In this document: positions 3,346 through 8,933 of the stretch, piece by piece
Position numbering within the stretch: position 1 is the first letter of the stretch
How the letters are laid out: every line of letters starts with the position of its first letter
Origin: a virus
Lineage: Duplodnaviria > Heunggongvirae > Uroviricota > Caudoviricetes
IMG/VR virus record: IMGVR_UViG_2541047596_000006
Length of the DNA: 11,137 nucleotides
Direction: 5' to 3' (one strand)
The notes under the pieces: generated by a model
Told to the model about the DNA's origin: nothing
Database searches by the model: none
What the model saw: only the letters and a program-made list of their open reading frames with translations
Made by a program: the position numbers and the translations under genes

Positions 3346-3525
3346 ATGAAAAACGCATTGCAGTTTTTGTTTGTTGCGTTCTGGTTGTTCGCATCATGTA
3401 TGCCCATCATCTTCACAGCAAGGTATATGGAAAAAGTTGATGTTTTGATATTAATATTTGGATATATAAATGCCCTTTTTTTAGGGGTGTTCATGGCGGT
3501 CATGTGCATTGAATACTGGCGGTAA
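3346..3525 (+). CDS. Small predicted membrane protein (59 aa, two hydrophobic helices)
   Basis: ATG at 3346 preceded by a near-consensus Shine-Dalgarno (GTAGGAGGAATA-ATG). The product MKNALQFLFVAFWLFASCMPIIFTARYMEKVDVLILIFGYINALFLGVFMAVMCIEYWR has two hydrophobic segments separated by a short charged loop. The ORF track's 72-aa version starts at an upstream ATG (3307) without a ribosome-binding site. Confidence 0.5.
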   Translation: MKNALQFLFVAFWLFASCMPIIFTARYMEKVDVLILIFGYINALFLGVFMAVMCIEYWR

Positions 3526-3831
3526 ATACAGCGAACTCCATTGGTTTAGTTGGATATTTACTGTGCTGGACAAAAACGGTTTGCGGGGAAATCTTAGTTA
3601 AGTAGAATGACTGCGGGTGCTTGAGGCTATCTGCCTCGGGCATGGACACCAACGGCAGATAGAGAAAAGCCCCAGTTAACATTACGCGTCCTGCAAGACG
3701 CTTAACATTAATCTGAGGCCAATTTCATGCTAGACACATGTAGGTTAGCCTCTTACGTGCCGAAAGGCACGGAGAAGCAGGCTATTGTTAACACCAAGCT
3801 GTAATGTCCCCTTTGAACCATTCTAAAATGT

Positions 3832-3858
3832 CCCCAGACAATTCTCTGGGGGATTTTT
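3832..3858 (+). promoter_or_regulatory. Terminator-like hairpin (CCCCAGA-caattc-TCTGGGG followed by GATTTTT) directly upstream of the transposase ATG; its 3' arm contains the likely ribosome-binding site
   Basis: Seen in sequence: a 7-bp stem (5 GC pairs) and a T5 run ending 2 nt before the ATG at 3860. The GGGGG that would serve as Shine-Dalgarno is inside the stem. Insertion sequences commonly use such a structure to block read-through transcription or translation of the transposase. Confidence 0.4.
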
Positions 3859-3859
3859 C

Positions 3860-5173
3860 ATGATCAAAGAGACTGTTACGATGAGTCATAAGGAACTCCA
3901 CCGACTTCAGATTATTCAGGAACAAGCTGCGGCACGCATTGGCATTTCTATTCGGCAGGTTAAACGTCTGGTGCAACGGTATAGAAATGAAGGGCCTTCT
4001 GGTCTGGTTTCCCACCGACGTGGAAAGCGTCCTAATAATTCCTTTTCTACTGAATTCAGAGCAACAGTAATTTCACTCCTCAAAGGCCGTTACGCTGATT
4101 TTGGACCTACGTTTGCGTGCGAAAAATTGCGCGAGATACACGGTTTATCTTTATCCGTTGAAACTCTCAGAAAGTGGATGATAGAAGAGGGGTTATGGCG
4201 TGAACGCCGTCGTAAAATTGCCCGTATATATCAACGCCGCATGCGACGACCATCTTACGGTGAACTGATCCAGATTGATGGCTCACCTCATGACTGGTTT
4301 GAAAATCGAGGCCCCAGATGTACACTGATCGTTTTCATTGATGATGCCACCAGTGCGTTGATGGCGTTGCGTTTTGTGCCTGCTGAAACAACCCGGGCTT
4401 ACATGGAAACCCTCCGGGGTTACCTTAATGATCATGGCGTACCGCTCGCTCTCTACTCTGATAGACACAGTATATTCAGGGTAAATAACCCAGAGCGGGA
4501 AGGTGAGCTGACCCAGTTCACTCGTGCGATAAAGACACTGGGCATCGAGCCAATCCATGCCAACAGCCCGCAGGCAAAAGGGCGGGTAGAGCGCGCCAAT
4601 CAGACACTACAGGACAGGCTGGTCAAAGAAATGCGGCTTCAGAATATCAGTGATATTGAAACAGCAAATGCATGGTTGCCGACCTTTATTGAAGCCTATA
4701 ACAACCGGTTCGCTACGTCGCCTCGTACTACTGATAATGCTCATCTTGATGTGCACCATTCTGAAGAGGAACTGGGTTATATCTTCAGCCTACAGGCGAA
4801 GCGCGTTCTGTCTAAAAATCTCACTTTCCAGTACAAAAGCAGTGCGTTTCAGGTACGCAGTGAGGGCCGGGGATATCGACTTAGGCATTCGGTTGTTACT
4901 GTATGCGAGAACTTTGACGGTGAAATTAACGTTCTGTATGACGGGAAAGCGCTGGGCTGGGAAAAGTATGTTGATGGCCCGGAGCCTATACCACTGGATG
5001 ATGAAAAGAGTGTCCATGAACGAGTGGATAATGCCCGTATTGATTTACGCTCAAAATACTATGTTAAACCTAAAGCTGACCATCCCTGGCTTACGCGCCG
5101 AACGCAAAGTCATCAGCAAGTTAAGCCCCCGAAGTTACCTAAAAAGAAGCCTGATCCCGATAAAAAAGATTGA
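3860..5173 (+). CDS. DDE transposase of the rve/integrase-core superfamily with N-terminal helix-turn-helix; most consistent with the ISNCY (IS1202 group) or IS481 family
   Basis: 437 aa. N-terminal helix-turn-helix (...RIGISIRQVKRLVQRYRNEG...). Catalytic core with D (LIQIDGSPH), D (LYSDRHSIF) and E (KGRVERANQTLQ) at the spacing typical of retroviral-integrase-like transposases. Basic C-terminal tail. Met8 (MSHKELHRL) is an alternative start. Confidence 0.85.
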   Translation: MIKETVTMSHKELHRLQIIQEQAAARIGISIRQVKRLVQRYRNEGPSGLVSHRRGKRPNNSFSTEFRATVISLLKGRYADFGPTFACEKLREIHGLSLSVETLRKWMIEEGLWRERRRKIARIYQRRMRRPSYGELIQIDGSPHDWFENRGPRCTLIVFIDDATSALMALRFVPAETTRAYMETLRGYLNDHGVPLALYSDRHSIFRVNNPEREGELTQFTRAIKTLGIEPIHANSPQAKGRVERANQTLQDRLVKEMRLQNISDIETANAWLPTFIEAYNNRFATSPRTTDNAHLDVHHSEEELGYIFSLQAKRVLSKNLTFQYKSSAFQVRSEGRGYRLRHSVVTVCENFDGEINVLYDGKALGWEKYVDGPEPIPLDDEKSVHERVDNARIDLRSKYYVKPKADHPWLTRRTQSHQQVKPPKLPKKKPDPDKKD

Positions 5174-5564
5174 AACCAAGATCGATTCGGTTGAGTGCAT
5201 ATCCATTCATAGGGTAGATTCTTAAGTCGCGTTTCTGGTGTTCATTTTCGGGTGGTTTGTTACTTGTTTTACCGGGGATATGCCAGAAACGCGCTGAGTC
5301 AGTCTGGGCGGTGCGCGTAATGAGGCGTTATGGTAAATAGCCTATGCTAATGTCCGCTAAGAGCAAGAAGCGGAAGTTGGCAGTTTTGTGGACTGTCCCC
5401 ACAAAAGTGACTACAGAAATAGTTGCAATTCATAATTGATCATGGGTTGTCAGTTAAACTCGTGGCGATTTAAATAGACTAATTGGGAGTGCGTCCATTA
5501 CTTATATCTTGTAATGTTAACTATCAGAAATGATACAAAGATAATATGTCTTTAAAGAAAAGGC

Positions 5565-5595
5565 TGATGGCGAAAAGTGGCCCGATGAGGGCCAC
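5565..5595 (-). terminator. Rho-independent terminator downstream of flxA
   Basis: Plus-strand GTGGCCC-gatga-GGGCCAC (5577-5595) is a 7-bp GC-rich stem. On the minus strand it is followed by a T-rich tract. It lies about 15 nt past the flxA stop. Confidence 0.5.
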
Positions 5596-5609
5596 AATAC
5601 GGCTGTCAC

Positions 5610-5942
5610 TTAGACGTAAATATCAATGGTGCCAGCGGTATTTGTATCGTCTTTTTTCTCTTCTTTTTTATCAGGCTGAACTGTCGCGTCTTCATTCTTT
5701 TTCTCTGCCTGCTGCCTTAACAACTGCTCCAGTTGAGCCCAGAGGCTTTCAATTTGCTTCTGTACCAATGCAGCCATTTCTTTTTTCTGCTGTGTCGTCA
5801 TCCCCTCTTCCGATGAGATTTTCCCAAGCTTTTCAGTCAGCACCTGAATTTGTCTTGTGATTTTGGCTATTTCTGATGTTCCTTCCGGGGCGGAGTTGTT
5901 TGAAATAACGGTTGAGGTATTTCCCTGAATTGTGACAGACAT
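5610..5942 (-). CDS. flxA: FlxA (sigma-28-dependent flagellar-regulon protein encoded in the Qin prophage)
   Basis: The 110-aa product MSVTIQGNTSTVISNNSAPEGTSEIAKITRQIQVLTEKLGK...TIDIYV matches my recollection of E. coli FlxA in length and sequence. Shine-Dalgarno AAAAGGAGA sits 7 nt upstream. A sigma-28-type promoter lies just upstream. Confidence 0.85.
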   Translation of the reverse strand: MSVTIQGNTSTVISNNSAPEGTSEIAKITRQIQVLTEKLGKISSEEGMTTQQKKEMAALVQKQIESLWAQLEQLLRQQAEKKNEDATVQPDKKEEKKDDTNTAGTIDIYV

Positions 5943-5965
5943 AGATTTCTCCTTTTAAAAAAGCA

Positions 5966-5992
5966 CTATCGGCATGCACAAAAAAATCTTTA
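5966..5992 (-). promoter_or_regulatory. Sigma-28 (FliA) class promoter for flxA
   Basis: On the minus strand TAAAGATT-N11-GCCGATAG, against the FliA consensus TAAAGTTT-N11-GCCGATAA (14 of 16 positions, exact 11-nt spacer). The -10 element lies about 25 nt upstream of the flxA ATG. Confidence 0.6.
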
Positions 5993-6144
5993 ATCGTATT
6001 TCTTGTGTCATTAATTGTTTGATGTTCAGATTGTTTTCCTCGCGGGCTGGCGCGCCTCAGAAAGTAAAGCTTGTTGACAGGGGTAAACGTTCGGCAATAA
6101 TTTTCTGCCGCATGCGGGTGTTGCATAAAACGTGTTACGTTCCT

Positions 6145-6450
6145 TTATCGACAGGTCAGGTCACCGCTCACCCGCCGACGAGAAAGCAACACTGACATGC
6201 TAAAGCAAAAAATAGATGAATAAGTTGAGTTGTGCATATGTAGCCTGACCGTCACAAAGTATATGGTGTCTGTACCAGTAAGATGATGGCCGGACTCTTT
6301 AAAAACGAGCAGACCTGCACAATACAGGATGGACTTAGCAATGGCTGCTCCTGGCACAAAGCGGACAGTGATCACCGTTCTTACGACTACTTTCTGACTT
6401 CCTTCGTGACTTGCCCTAAGCATGTTGTAGTGCGATACTTGTAATGACAT
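6145..6450 (-). CDS. Hypothetical ORF between flxA and relB (ydfV-like position and length); coding status doubtful
   Basis: 101-aa ORF in the position where E. coli K-12 annotates the 101-aa ydfV between relB and flxA. The composition is atypical and there is no recognisable domain. Confidence 0.25.
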   Translation of the reverse strand: MSLQVSHYNMLRASHEGSQKVVVRTVITVRFVPGAAIAKSILYCAGLLVFKESGHHLTGTDTIYFVTVRLHMHNSTYSSIFCFSMSVLLSRRRVSGDLTCR

Positions 6451-6463
6451 TTGTAATTACAAG
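6411..6463 (+). promoter_or_regulatory. relBE promoter with overlapping operator palindrome
   Basis: TTGCCC-17nt-GATACT is a sigma-70-like -35/-10 pair. The inverted repeat CTTGTAAT-gacatttgta-ATTACAAG (6438-6463) contains two TTGTAAT hexads and overlaps the -10 element, consistent with RelB/RelE autorepression. Confidence 0.6.
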
Positions 6464-6474
6464 AGGTGTAAGAC

Positions 6475-6714
6475 ATGGGTAGCATTAACCTGCGTATTGA
6501 CGATGAACTTAAAGCGCGTTCTTACGCCGCGCTTGAAAAAATGGGTGTAACTCCTTCTGAAGCGCTTCGTCTCATGCTCGAGTATATCGCTGACAATGAA
6601 CGCTTGCCGTTCAAACAGACACTCCTGAGTGATGAAGATGCTGAACTTGTGGAGATAGTGAAAGAACGGCTTCGTAATCCTAAGCCAGTACGTGTGACGC
6701 TGGATGAACTCTGA
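6475..6714 (+). CDS. relB: RelB antitoxin (type II toxin-antitoxin)
   Basis: The 79-aa product MGSINLRIDDELKARSYAALEKMGVTPSEALR... is near-identical to my recollection of E. coli RelB. Its stop overlaps the relE start (TGATG). Confidence 0.95.
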   Translation: MGSINLRIDDELKARSYAALEKMGVTPSEALRLMLEYIADNERLPFKQTLLSDEDAELVEIVKERLRNPKPVRVTLDEL

Positions 6715-7001
6715 TGGCGTATTTTCTGGATTTTGACGAGCGGGCACTAAAGGAATGGCGAAAGCTGGGCTCGACGGTACGTGAACAGTTGAAAAAGAAG
6801 CTGGTTGAAGTACTTGAGTCACCCCGGATTGAAGCAAACAAGCTCCGTGGTATGCCTGATTGTTACAAGATTAAGCTCCGGTCTTCAGGCTATCGCCTTG
6901 TATACCAGGTTATAGACGAGAAAGTTGTCGTTTTCGTGATTTCTGTTGGGAAAAGAGAACGCTCGGAAGTATATAGCGAGGCGGTCAAACGCATTCTCTG
7001 A
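6714..7001 (+). CDS. relE: RelE toxin (ribosome-dependent mRNA interferase)
   Basis: The 95-aa product MAYFLDFDERALKEWRKLGSTVREQLKKKL...VISVGKRERSEVY matches E. coli RelE and is translationally coupled to relB. Confidence 0.95.
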   Translation: MAYFLDFDERALKEWRKLGSTVREQLKKKLVEVLESPRIEANKLRGMPDCYKIKLRSSGYRLVYQVIDEKVVVFVISVGKRERSEVYSEAVKRIL

Positions 7002-7072
7002 ACCAAAGCATGACATCTCTGTTTCGCACCGAAGGTGACACTTCTGCTTTGCGTTGACAGGAGAAGCAGGCT

Positions 7073-7228
7073 ATGAAGCAGCAAAAGGCGATGTTAATCG
7101 CCCTGATCGTCATCTGTTTAACCGTCATAGTGACGGCACTGGTAACGAGGAAAGACCTCTGCGAGGTACGAATCCGAACCGGCCAGACGGAGGTCGCTGT
7201 CTTCACAGCTTACGAACCTGAGGAGTAA
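7073..7228 (+). CDS. hokD: Hok-family type I toxin (HokD/RelF), 51 aa
   Basis: Not in the supplied ORF track (under 60 aa). My translation is MKQQKAMLIALIVICLTVIVTALVTRKDLCEVRIRTGQTEVAVFTAYEPEE: an N-terminal transmembrane helix and the conserved Hok C-terminal half. It is the third gene after relBE, as in Qin. Confidence 0.85.
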   Translation: MKQQKAMLIALIVICLTVIVTALVTRKDLCEVRIRTGQTEVAVFTAYEPEE

Positions 7229-7296
7229 GAGACCCGGCGGGGGAGAAATCCCTCGCCACCTCTGATGTGGCAGGCATCCTCAACGCACCCGCACTT

Positions 7297-7327
7297 AACC
7301 CGCTTCGGCGGGTTTTTGTTTTTATTT
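7297..7327 (+). terminator. Rho-independent terminator ending the relBE-hokD transcript
   Basis: AACCCGC-ttcg-GCGGGTT stem-loop followed by TTTTTGTTTTTATTTT. Confidence 0.6.
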
Positions 7328-7438
7328 TCAACGCGTTTGAAGTTCTGGACGGTGCCGGAATAGAATCAAAAATACTTAAGTAGCGCGCAGGGATAAGAGG
7401 GATGGTCCCTTAAGGGTAAAGGGATTGTTCTGGATGAA

Positions 7439-8306: not shown

Positions 8307-8606
8307 AAAAATTCCTTAATACTGATAACTTGGCGCACTATACACACGTTCCTGAAGAAAGCTATAGTTTTTTGATGGGGTTGAAGATGGCTGGATGTCT
8401 AAAATAAACATTGCTTCATATGTTCAACTATGCGTTAATGATTGCGTCGGTTTGAAGAACAGACGATATACGAAGTAGTTTACTAAAGCAGTTCTCATTT
8501 CAGGTGTTATTCACTTATTCCTTCTTTGAGTCTCTCCAATTAAGTACGAAGTCGTTTCTGTTATGCAAACCATTTATGCCGAAAGGCTCAAGTTAAGGAA
8601 TGTAGA

Positions 8607-8822
8607 ATGTCAAATAAAATGACTGGTTTAGTAAAATGGTTTAACGCTGATAAAGGTTTCGGCTTTATTTCTCCTGTTGATGGTAGTAAAGATGTGTTTG
8701 TGCATTTTTCTGCGATTCAGAATGATAATTATCGAACCTTATTTGAAGGTCAAAAGGTTACCTTCTCTATAGAGAGTGGTGCTAAAGGTCCTGCAGCAGC
8801 AAATGTCATCATTACTGATTAA
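8607..8822 (+). CDS. cspB: Cold-shock protein CspB, 71 aa
   Basis: [67 protein letters not shown]... has the canonical RNP1 (KGFGFI) and RNP2 (VFVHF) motifs. A long upstream untranslated region (about 300 nt to cspF) is typical of cold-shock genes. Confidence 0.9.
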
Positions 8823-8933
8823 AATTCATCGCTCGTCTGTATACGATAACGAAGAAGGCTGATGCCTGAGTAGAGATACGGACAGAGTAGTGAATATTGG
8901 ATCTCTTTAATAAAAAGTAAGGAGGTCCAATAC

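Follow-up and report, generated by a model that had tools for sequence, protein, structure and literature searches.

Introduction

In intact hok/sok loci, the mRNA of the toxin gene hok is translationally silent through pairing of the 5′ end of its leader with a 3′ fbi box, and it refolds after 3′ processing. Translation of the mok frame is coupled to that of hok, and Sok, a short antisense RNA from the opposite strand, blocks mok translation. One toxin gene of this family, hokD (relF), belongs to the relBEF operon of Escherichia coli K-12, reportedly described by Gotfredsen and Gerdes in 1998. Here we analyze 11,137 nucleotides (nt) of DNA from a virus of the Caudoviricetes (IMG/VR record IMGVR_UViG_2541047596_000006), a stretch that we refer to in full as the window, in which a hokD-type leader lies next to an insertion sequence (IS) element of the ISEsa1 type, IS1202 family. 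A first-pass annotation made from the letters of the window and its open reading frames (ORFs) had flagged positions 3540–3860, between a small membrane-protein gene and a transposase gene, as densely structured sequence with no credible ORF, and had proposed that it could be a regulatory leader, a small RNA or an RNA component tied in function to the transposase-like protein.

The catalogued ISEsa1 is 1,609 bp long, with terminal repeats that match at 15 of 22 positions and no duplication detected (Harmer and Hall 2023, PMC10132070). Target duplications in the IS1202 subgroup are 16–17 bp, and the ISAjo2 group of the IS1202 family is site-specific, inserting in a fixed orientation at dif/pdif (PMC10132070). 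Longer members of the family include ISKpn21 (2,278 bp) and ISRel10 (2,528 bp), and a two-ORF “transporter IS” has been flagged (PMC10132070). As to the K-12 operon, integration of relBE shortened the hokD ORF from 70 to 51 codons (Ramisetty et al., PMC6379469, citing Ramisetty and Santhosh 2016).

Identity of the Structured Region

The region 3540–3860 is very probably a composite, in which an orphaned hokD/sok leader is followed by the left end of an ISEsa1-type transposon. The leader has been severed from its toxin gene, hokD, by this relBE-bearing transposon, whose left end makes up the last 74 bases of the region (3786–3859). An Rfam scan of the whole window returned two matches above the gathering score, a cspA thermoregulator and RF01794 (“sok”). 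The latter matched 3615–3786 on the plus strand over its full model (1–157 of 157), with 104.1 bits against a gathering score of 59 and an E-value of 2.6e-23. The RF01794 model matches the hok-sense strand, and at every locus examined its match was co-oriented with, and directly upstream of, the Hok ORF or its remnant. The minimum free energy of 3615–3786 was −64.5 kcal/mol (z = −4.66), with 0 of 200 shuffles as stable, and no shuffle of 3540–3860 was as stable as the native sequence either (z = −4.29). RNAalifold analysis of 10 diverged leaders from different hok loci, in a MAFFT alignment that was rough in the variable hairpins, gave 20 pairs, including the long-range pairing of the 5′ box with AGCCUC, and five of these pairs had compensatory (double-sided) changes. 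Diverged hok leaders scored 81–128 bits with Rfam.

The Rfam match and the fold z-scores bear out the earlier suggestion that the region is structured, RNA-level regulatory sequence, and the Rfam scan and the analysis of structure conservation that the first-pass annotation had proposed both gave positive results. It had also judged that there was more structure than an IS end needs; the IS end is 3786–3859, and the remainder is hok leader. What had appeared to be a candidate new RNA can be set aside, as the structure belongs to the long-studied hok/sok family and to an IS end.

All of the structures listed earlier for 3540–3860 were found, to within 1 nt. The hokD-type mRNA leader (3615–3785, plus strand), which is delimited by the Rfam match, by homology to leaders at empty sites and by RNAalifold, contains a 5′ tac/fbi-partner box, a hairpin at 3627–3662, a long hairpin at ~3668–3720, the mok start region, a AGCCUCUUA box (3747–3755), a hairpin at 3756–3771 and the hok Shine-Dalgarno GGAG (3771–3774). 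The first hairpin (CTATCTGCC at 3627–3635, an 18-nt loop and GGCAGATAG at 3654–3662) is the 5′ stem-loop of the leader. The second, GCGTC (3686–3690), ctgcaa and GACGC (3697–3701), together with its TTAACATTA flanks (GTTAACATTA at 3675–3684 and CTTAACATTA at 3701–3710), is the long stem. The third, CGTGCC-GAAA-GGCACG (3756–3771), lies just 5′ of the hok Shine-Dalgarno. The leader's 5′ end, GGGTGCTTGAGG (3615–3626), is complementary, with a 1-nt bulge, to CCTCAACGCACCC (7279–7291), an fbi-like box that is followed by a terminator hairpin and T-run in the 3′ region of hokD (7279–7320, plus strand); we assign its role from the known architecture of hok mRNAs. This box and the terminator are intact, and 3.6 kb now separates the two parts of what is a single hok mRNA architecture.

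The earlier view that no credible ORF covers the region needs correction, as a truncated mok-type ORF runs from the leader into the IS end (3727–3804, plus strand; 25 codons and a TAA within the IS end). Translations of the window and of an intact locus, L002, where the mok-type ORF has 70 codons and is in frame with hokD, indicate that the start and first 19 codons were kept and that the insertion cut the frame to 25 codons. Equivalent mok stubs on plasmids are named “DUF5431 family protein” by PGAP, and a 60-amino-acid (aa) ORF was also listed mechanically on the minus strand (3500–3682). The idea of a small RNA survives in altered form, in that the region probably encodes a Sok-like antisense RNA on the minus strand. 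This predicted RNA (3664–3737) would have a single-stranded 5′ tail, a long terminator hairpin, which is the leader's long stem read on the minus strand, and a UUUUC tail. Its minus-strand fold had a predicted energy of −29.4 kcal/mol (z = −5.21), and its ends are those that we assume by analogy with R1 Sok.

The hok and sok promoters were placed by homology and position. A putative hok promoter at 3581–3608 (plus strand) would consist of a −35 TTGCGG (3581–3586), a 16-nt spacer and a −10 TAGAAT (3603–3608) that ends 7 nt before the first base of the leader (3615, the start of the Rfam match). The likely sok promoter, at 3742–3770 on the minus strand, would have a −10 TAACCT (3747–3742), a 17-nt spacer and a −35 GTGCCT (3770–3765).

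Overall, the locus shares with the hok/sok family a full-length Rfam match, fbi-like complementarity, a mok start, a Shine-Dalgarno and an antisense Sok-like hairpin with a U-tail. It differs in that the leader is 3,274 bp from the toxin ORF, mok is cut to 25 codons and the putative sok −35 is mutated. The Hok/Gef ORF that directly follows the leader in loci L002 and L003 is replaced here by the transposase gene. Judged on these sequence features, the leader is a disrupted member of the hok/sok family and not a non-member, and the regulatory mechanism that we ascribe to it is taken from the R1 hok/sok literature.

Empty Sites, Target Duplication and the Ends of the Element

Homologues of the leader were found in 4,332 of 5,426 complete E. 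coli genomes, and their homology to the window ends at 3785, where hokD/Hok coding sequences are annotated. In MY732 and S1-KEN-03-A, which are without the insertion, the leader (98.4% and 95% identical to that of the window, respectively) is contiguous with hokD, followed by rem-ydfU, and window segments 3595–3785 and 7059–7416 map onto overlapping coordinates of these loci. Between leader and hokD the window has an insert of 3,274 bp (3786–7059), with a perfect 15-bp target duplication, GGAGAAGCAGGCTAT, on both sides. The left copy (3771–3785) was defined by the junctions and the empty-site comparison and the right copy (7060–7074) by the junctions. At the left junction GGCAC and GGAGAAGCAGGCTAT are followed by TGTTAACACC, and at the right junction GCGTTGACA is followed by GGAGAAGCAGGCTAT and GAAGCAG. 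The duplicated bases extend from the hok Shine-Dalgarno through the first two bases (AT) of the ATG of hokD (7073–7228, plus strand), a 51-aa toxin ORF annotated as hokD in RefSeq (Pfam HOK_GEF, 82.9 bits). A 16-bp duplication with one mismatch was considered and rejected, as many elements show that the “A” after GTTGAC belongs to the element, leaving a perfect 15 bp. Among the 5,426 genomes, the leader-IS junction was present in 784 and the intact leader-hokD junction in 4,034. E. coli C, ATCC 8739 and W5-6 are examples of strains that share the arrangement of the window.

The left end of the element (3786–3859, plus strand) starts with TGTTAAC and contains TGTCCCC motifs at 3805–3811 and 3829–3835 and a hairpin at 3831–3852. 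This end, TGTTAACACCAAGCTGTAATGTCCCC, and the reverse-complemented right end, TGTCAACGCAAAGCAGAAGTGTCACC, are imperfect inverted repeats. The right inverted repeat (7010–7059, minus strand; reverse complement TGTCAACGCAAAGCAGAAGTGTCACC...GAGATGTCATGC) terminates in GTTGACA and has two TGTC motifs at the same offsets as those of the left end. The first 60 nt of the insert were identical in plasmid and genome copies with unrelated flanks. On this comparative evidence, both AATGTCCCC copies belong to the conserved subterminal motifs of the element and most likely serve as transposase-binding sites. TGTCCCC occurred three times in the window versus 0.87 expected, a count weakly above chance given that 11 of 200 shuffles had three or more. 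The third copy (5394–5400), which the first-pass annotation had taken for a related motif, was also considered as a remnant inverted repeat and rejected, being in direct orientation, within variable cargo and part of a count at about chance level; it is probably a chance occurrence.

A relative from Hahella with a 62%-identical transposase provided a further comparison. This IS is simple, 1,449 bp long, with termini TGTTA... and ...TTGACA, two (A/G)TGTCCCC motifs per end (at approximately positions 18 and 41) and 15–16-bp target duplications in eight copies, and 84% of the first 50 nt of the window element are conserved in it. Its transposase ATG is 72 nt from the end and it has no leader-like structured region.

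Because the element boundary falls at 3786, the sequence 3540–3785 is target DNA and not part of the element. An IS terminal inverted repeat had been anticipated in the first-pass annotation as the sign of ordinary flanking DNA; such a repeat was found and 3540–3785 does flank the element, yet it belongs to a known structured RNA family. The boundary also bears on the proposal that the RNA is a component of the transposase's element, that is, an IS-encoded guide, bridge or regulatory RNA tied to the transposase. The locus resembles RNA-guided elements (IS110/IS1111 with bridge RNA or seekRNA, and IS200/IS605 with omega RNA) in having a structured non-coding region beside the transposase gene of a site-specific element. 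In most copies that region immediately precedes the transposase gene, in the same orientation, and it folds far better than shuffled sequences. However, it ends at 3785 and lies outside the inverted repeat and target duplication, which mark the element boundary at 3786, and no complementarity-based guide was found. Copies of the element at non-hok sites are without it, as is the Hahella relative, whose transposase gene starts so close to the end. At empty sites it belongs to hokD, and its sequence differs between insertion sites that hold elements 98–100% identical to one another. Moreover, the transposase is of the DDE/rve type, and not DEDD or TnpB/HUH. We rejected a guide or bridge RNA on boundaries and transposase type, and consider it highly improbable.

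Recurrent Insertion at hok Leaders

We surveyed metagenome and viral contigs, along with genome-derived loci, for the exact 26-nt left end of the element, and called hok leaders with nhmmer (E ≤ 1e-3) using a profile from Rfam-verified leaders. A hok leader abutted 128 of the 166 left junctions. When only distinct left flanks were counted, 33 of 52 were hok leaders and five more were hok-related. Six further loci have diverged leaders (pnd, hokE-like and others), and there too the Rfam sok matches ended exactly at the left inverted repeat. Of 36 distinct hok-type flanks, 30 had the junction 16–17 nt past (G/T)GCA in the last hairpin of the leader, irrespective of the position of the hok ATG. 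The 75 complete elements yielded 22 distinct flank pairs, of which 14 had exact 13–16-bp duplications and three more had duplications with one mismatch; the duplications whose flanks were read consist of local hok sequence. Most of the remaining five pairs were hybrids of two hok types and therefore reflect recombination between element copies. The transposase gene faced away from the leader in all hok-associated flanks except those of one insertion (L023), which was reversed at the same 15 bp, and tandem insertions at the same target were also observed.

The first-pass annotation had proposed a comparison with other copies of the transposase to see whether the upstream region travels with it. 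The region does recur beside them, as target and not as cargo: hok leaders are where the element inserts, which explains their presence beside the transposase, and the element does not carry one itself. As a pattern across the sequences surveyed, ISEsa1-type elements appear to insert preferentially at one exact point of hok leaders. The junction, duplication, orientation and tandem data point to independent, position-specific insertions and not to the spread of one event. If such targeting is true, most insertions should lie 15–17 bp past GGCA, in one orientation and in dependence on GCCGAAAGGCAA.

The hybrid flank pairs, with a hokD-type left flank and another hok type on the right, show that recombination between element copies takes place, and the hok association could in principle have arisen through one ancient insertion that was spread by homologous recombination between hok loci, with no choice of target. 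Such an origin is very unlikely considering that at least 10 sequence-distinct hok loci each have a duplication of their own local sequence on both sides, that the junction varies by 1–2 nt and the duplications from 13 to 16 bp, and that a single insertion of opposite orientation and tandem double insertions occur at the same target. Furthermore, a GGCAA-like pentamer was present 15–16 nt upstream in 7 of 24 non-hok-type flanks, versus a background of 1.9%, for a motif that was defined post hoc.

We therefore favor independent insertion, and think it probable that ISEsa1-type elements are passenger-carrying transposons (left inverted repeat, transposase, variable cargo, relBE, right inverted repeat) that home in a fixed orientation to hok translation-initiation regions, 15–17 bp downstream of a GCC-N4-GGCA hairpin. 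On that account, each insertion would uncouple the toxin from mok/sok and bring its own relBE, and the relBEF operon of K-12 would be the decayed right half of one insertion.

Several observations weigh against the composite reading of the locus, with an orphaned leader and the end of a transposon that favors hok leaders. About 19 of the 52 distinct left flanks are not recognizable hok leaders, and for that reason targeting must be regarded as a preference and not as an absolute rule. A consensus promoter scan of 3500–3900 gave zero matches, with the putative hok and sok promoters among those missed; the hok promoter fails the scan because its −35 matches at 3 of 6 positions. The leader of the window has mismatches to that of L002 at 3610, 3645 and 3770, the last of which is an A-to-C change that converts the likely sok −35 from the TTGCCT of intact hokD loci to GTGCCT and lengthens the CGTGCC/GGCACG stem to 6 bp. 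Among surveyed junctions of the same insertion, 60 carry C and 18 carry A at position 3770, indicating that the change arose after insertion. Lastly, RNAalifold analysis of the IS-end hairpin in 11 relatives gave no consensus pairs and no covariation support.

The RNA belongs to a known family, and it is the targeting behavior that is possibly new; the apparent homing of a transposon to hok translation-initiation regions, along with its relBE-bearing structure, is the point of interest that is left. Neither hok targeting by ISEsa1, nor ISEsa1 ends with a 15-bp duplication as a vehicle, nor the relBE-containing architecture was found in the searchable literature, which excludes most subscription literature. 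If confirmed, hok leaders would be a second kind of specific target for the IS1202 family, after dif/pdif. A possible rationale is that hok loci sit on plasmids and prophages, so that a transposon that homes to them would end up on mobile DNA, while the addiction function disabled by the insertion could be taken over by the resident relBE.

Individual loci provided additional observations. One insertion at a non-hok site (L020, 7837–7950) lies inside an Rfam match to isrO, an Hfq-binding small RNA, with GGCAT at 16 nt before the junction. In L005 (1032–2398), from an IncF plasmid of Enterobacter, the hok leader upstream of the element is also split by ISKpn8, of the IS3 family, which indicates that hok leaders accumulate IS insertions of several kinds.

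Structure of the Element

The transposase gene of the window (3860–5173, plus strand, 437 aa) has ~98–99% nucleotide identity to plasmid genes named “IS1202-like element ISEsa1 family transposase” by PGAP. Its product matches Pfam HTH_32, HTH_29, HTH_28 and rve_3, the last at 24.4 bits, just below the cut-off of 26.5. The plasmid copies are 446 aa long, and the gene of the window has lost 27 bp in frame from the part that encodes the N-terminal helix-turn-helix region (9 aa, SVNRHITQE; window 3908–3921); this copy may be non-autonomous. The same deletion was seen in about half of the complete relBE-type elements surveyed (3,273–3,274 bp versus 3,299–3,303 bp).

Immediately upstream of this gene, the terminator-like hairpin 3831–3852 is followed by ATTTTTC and ends upstream of the ATG (3860). 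No other terminator-like match was present in 3500–3900 (shuffle mean 0.2). The hairpin pairs the C-run of the second TGTCCCC motif with the G-rich ribosome-binding region, its 3′ arm being the GGGGGA upstream of the ATG. This hairpin is real in ISEsa1 proper, where its probable role is to shield the transposase gene against transcription and translation from outside.

Another possibility is co-option, in which the hok leader would have become a functional leader for expression of the transposase. Transcription from the hok promoter would then read into the element, and Sok or folding of the leader would control transposase synthesis. The mok frame does run into the IS end, and the strong orientation bias, with only L023 as an exception, is a second point in favor. 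The bias is equally well explained by asymmetric target recognition, which has been described for other IS1202-family members (PMC10132070), and a terminator-like hairpin and U-run stand between leader and ATG. In addition, elements exist at non-hok sites, and the transposase that the leader would serve in the window has lost 9 aa of its DNA-binding region. Co-option is unlikely on this evidence, and we regard the leader as the site into which the element inserted.

Downstream of the transposase gene are flxA (5610–5942, minus strand; Pfam FlxA and RefSeq) and ydfV (6145–6450, minus strand; RefSeq), then relB (6475–6714, plus strand; Pfam RelB, 112 bits) and relE (6714–7001, plus strand; Pfam ParE_toxin, 51 bits). 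Many Enterobacterales have elements with these two ends, 2.6–9.1 kb in size. A comparison of window 3786–7059 with loci L010, L012, L013, L016, L020, L021, L024, L025, L027 and L080 showed that complete elements share a left module of ~1,610 bp (inverted repeat and transposase gene) and a right module of ~710 bp (relB, relE and inverted repeat; window 6347–7059), the latter found in all complete elements examined, with 85–99% identity. The cargo between the modules varies: the flxA-ydfV segment of the window is replaced by other genes in sister elements, such as a cation-diffusion transporter and a cytochrome b561-like gene or, in L021, an ars operon with a ClC channel and a fluoride riboswitch. 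Some elements hold extra inserted IS copies. On two plasmids (L006 and L007), the ISEsa1 left module is followed by the nickel-resistance cluster ncrABCY, in the order ncrY-ncrC-ncrB-ncrA, at non-hok sites.

We also considered whether the 1.6-kb ISEsa1 module moves alone, and rejected this, as in no locus was the left flank repeated after ~1.6 kb; whenever the left flank was repeated, it followed the relE-proximal end. It appears, then, that the catalogued ISEsa1 entry covers just one part, the left module, of a larger element. Like IS1202 and ISEsa1, the element of the window has a DDE transposase with N-terminal helix-turn-helix domains and imperfect terminal inverted repeats that start with TGT (~24–26 bp in the family), and the long target duplications of such elements (15–16 bp) are akin to the 16–17 bp of the IS1202 subgroup. 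In contrast to the ISEsa1 listing, the larger elements end in relBE and a true right inverted repeat, and they do have duplications. They differ from the ISAjo2 group in target, the preferred hok translation-initiation region as opposed to dif. Most catalogued IS1202 members are ~1.3–1.75 kb and carry a transposase only. The 3,274 bp of the window element include four passenger genes, and its behavior is that of a unit transposon or of an IS with passengers (“transporter IS”).

Consequences for hokD and the K-12 relBEF Operon

The empty-site comparison shows the first step of the course of events that we propose, in which the 3,274-bp transposon split the hokD ATG, between the AT that follows the hok Shine-Dalgarno and the G, and duplicated 15 bp. 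This cut off the leader, the truncated mok and the sok gene from the toxin ORF, now 3.3 kb downstream, and hokD is readable only from transcripts leaving relBE, which is the classical relBEF arrangement. The leader would be left as a relic, giving at most a Sok-like RNA and a truncated plus-strand transcript of ~240 nt that would stop at the IS-end hairpin and U-run.

K-12 MG1655 has the same relB-relE-hokD order and sequence, and keeps only window 4989–7416 (99.9% identical). Most of the transposase gene was removed, together with the leader and the left IS end, by a deletion that ends at 4989; as a result, the reference strain shows neither leader nor left end of the IS, and its “ydfW” consists of the last 49 transposase codons. 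In K-12 this fragment lies beside ydfX and dicC. The vehicle itself, meaning the inverted repeats and target duplication, and the orphan leader are visible in the window and not in K-12, and they give the origin of relBEF a definite vehicle and a definite event of insertion. The findings also affect annotation. RefSeq “ydfW” (5024–5173, 49 aa) is the end of a continuous 437-aa transposase ORF, which PGAP splits into a “partial ISNCY transposase” and ydfW, and the orphan leader carries no RefSeq annotation.

A function for the orphan leader can be envisaged if it still makes Sok and thereby neutralizes hokD-type mRNAs of co-resident prophages or plasmids, an anti-addiction role that would account for its retention. 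Only 3 of 191 positions distinguish the leader from intact hokD leaders, the fold of its antisense strand is Sok-like, the number of hokD-type leader copies per E. coli genome has a median of two and reaches nine, and the leader-IS junction is present in 784 of the 5,426 genomes. Yet in the commonest variant one of the three changes falls in the putative sok −35, the complete loss of the leader from K-12 has no known consequence, and the high identity may simply reflect a recent insertion. We hold an anti-addiction role to be possible, if rather doubtful, and continue to view the leader as the severed half of a hok/sok locus.

Other Features of the Window

The “small membrane-protein gene” of the first-pass annotation is a 59-aa hydrophobic ORF (3346–3525) with a GGAGG ribosome-binding site; it had no Pfam match and no coding sequence at this position in the RefSeq record of strain W5-6. 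The window diverges from W5-6 after 7416, and the prophage backbone is therefore mosaic. At the left edge is a 431-aa phage integrase (20–1315, minus strand; Arm-DNA-bind_2 and Phage_integrase). The Rfam cspA thermoregulator (8446–8838, 158.8 bits) presumably represents the 5′ untranslated region and start of a prophage cold-shock gene of the cspB/cspI type.

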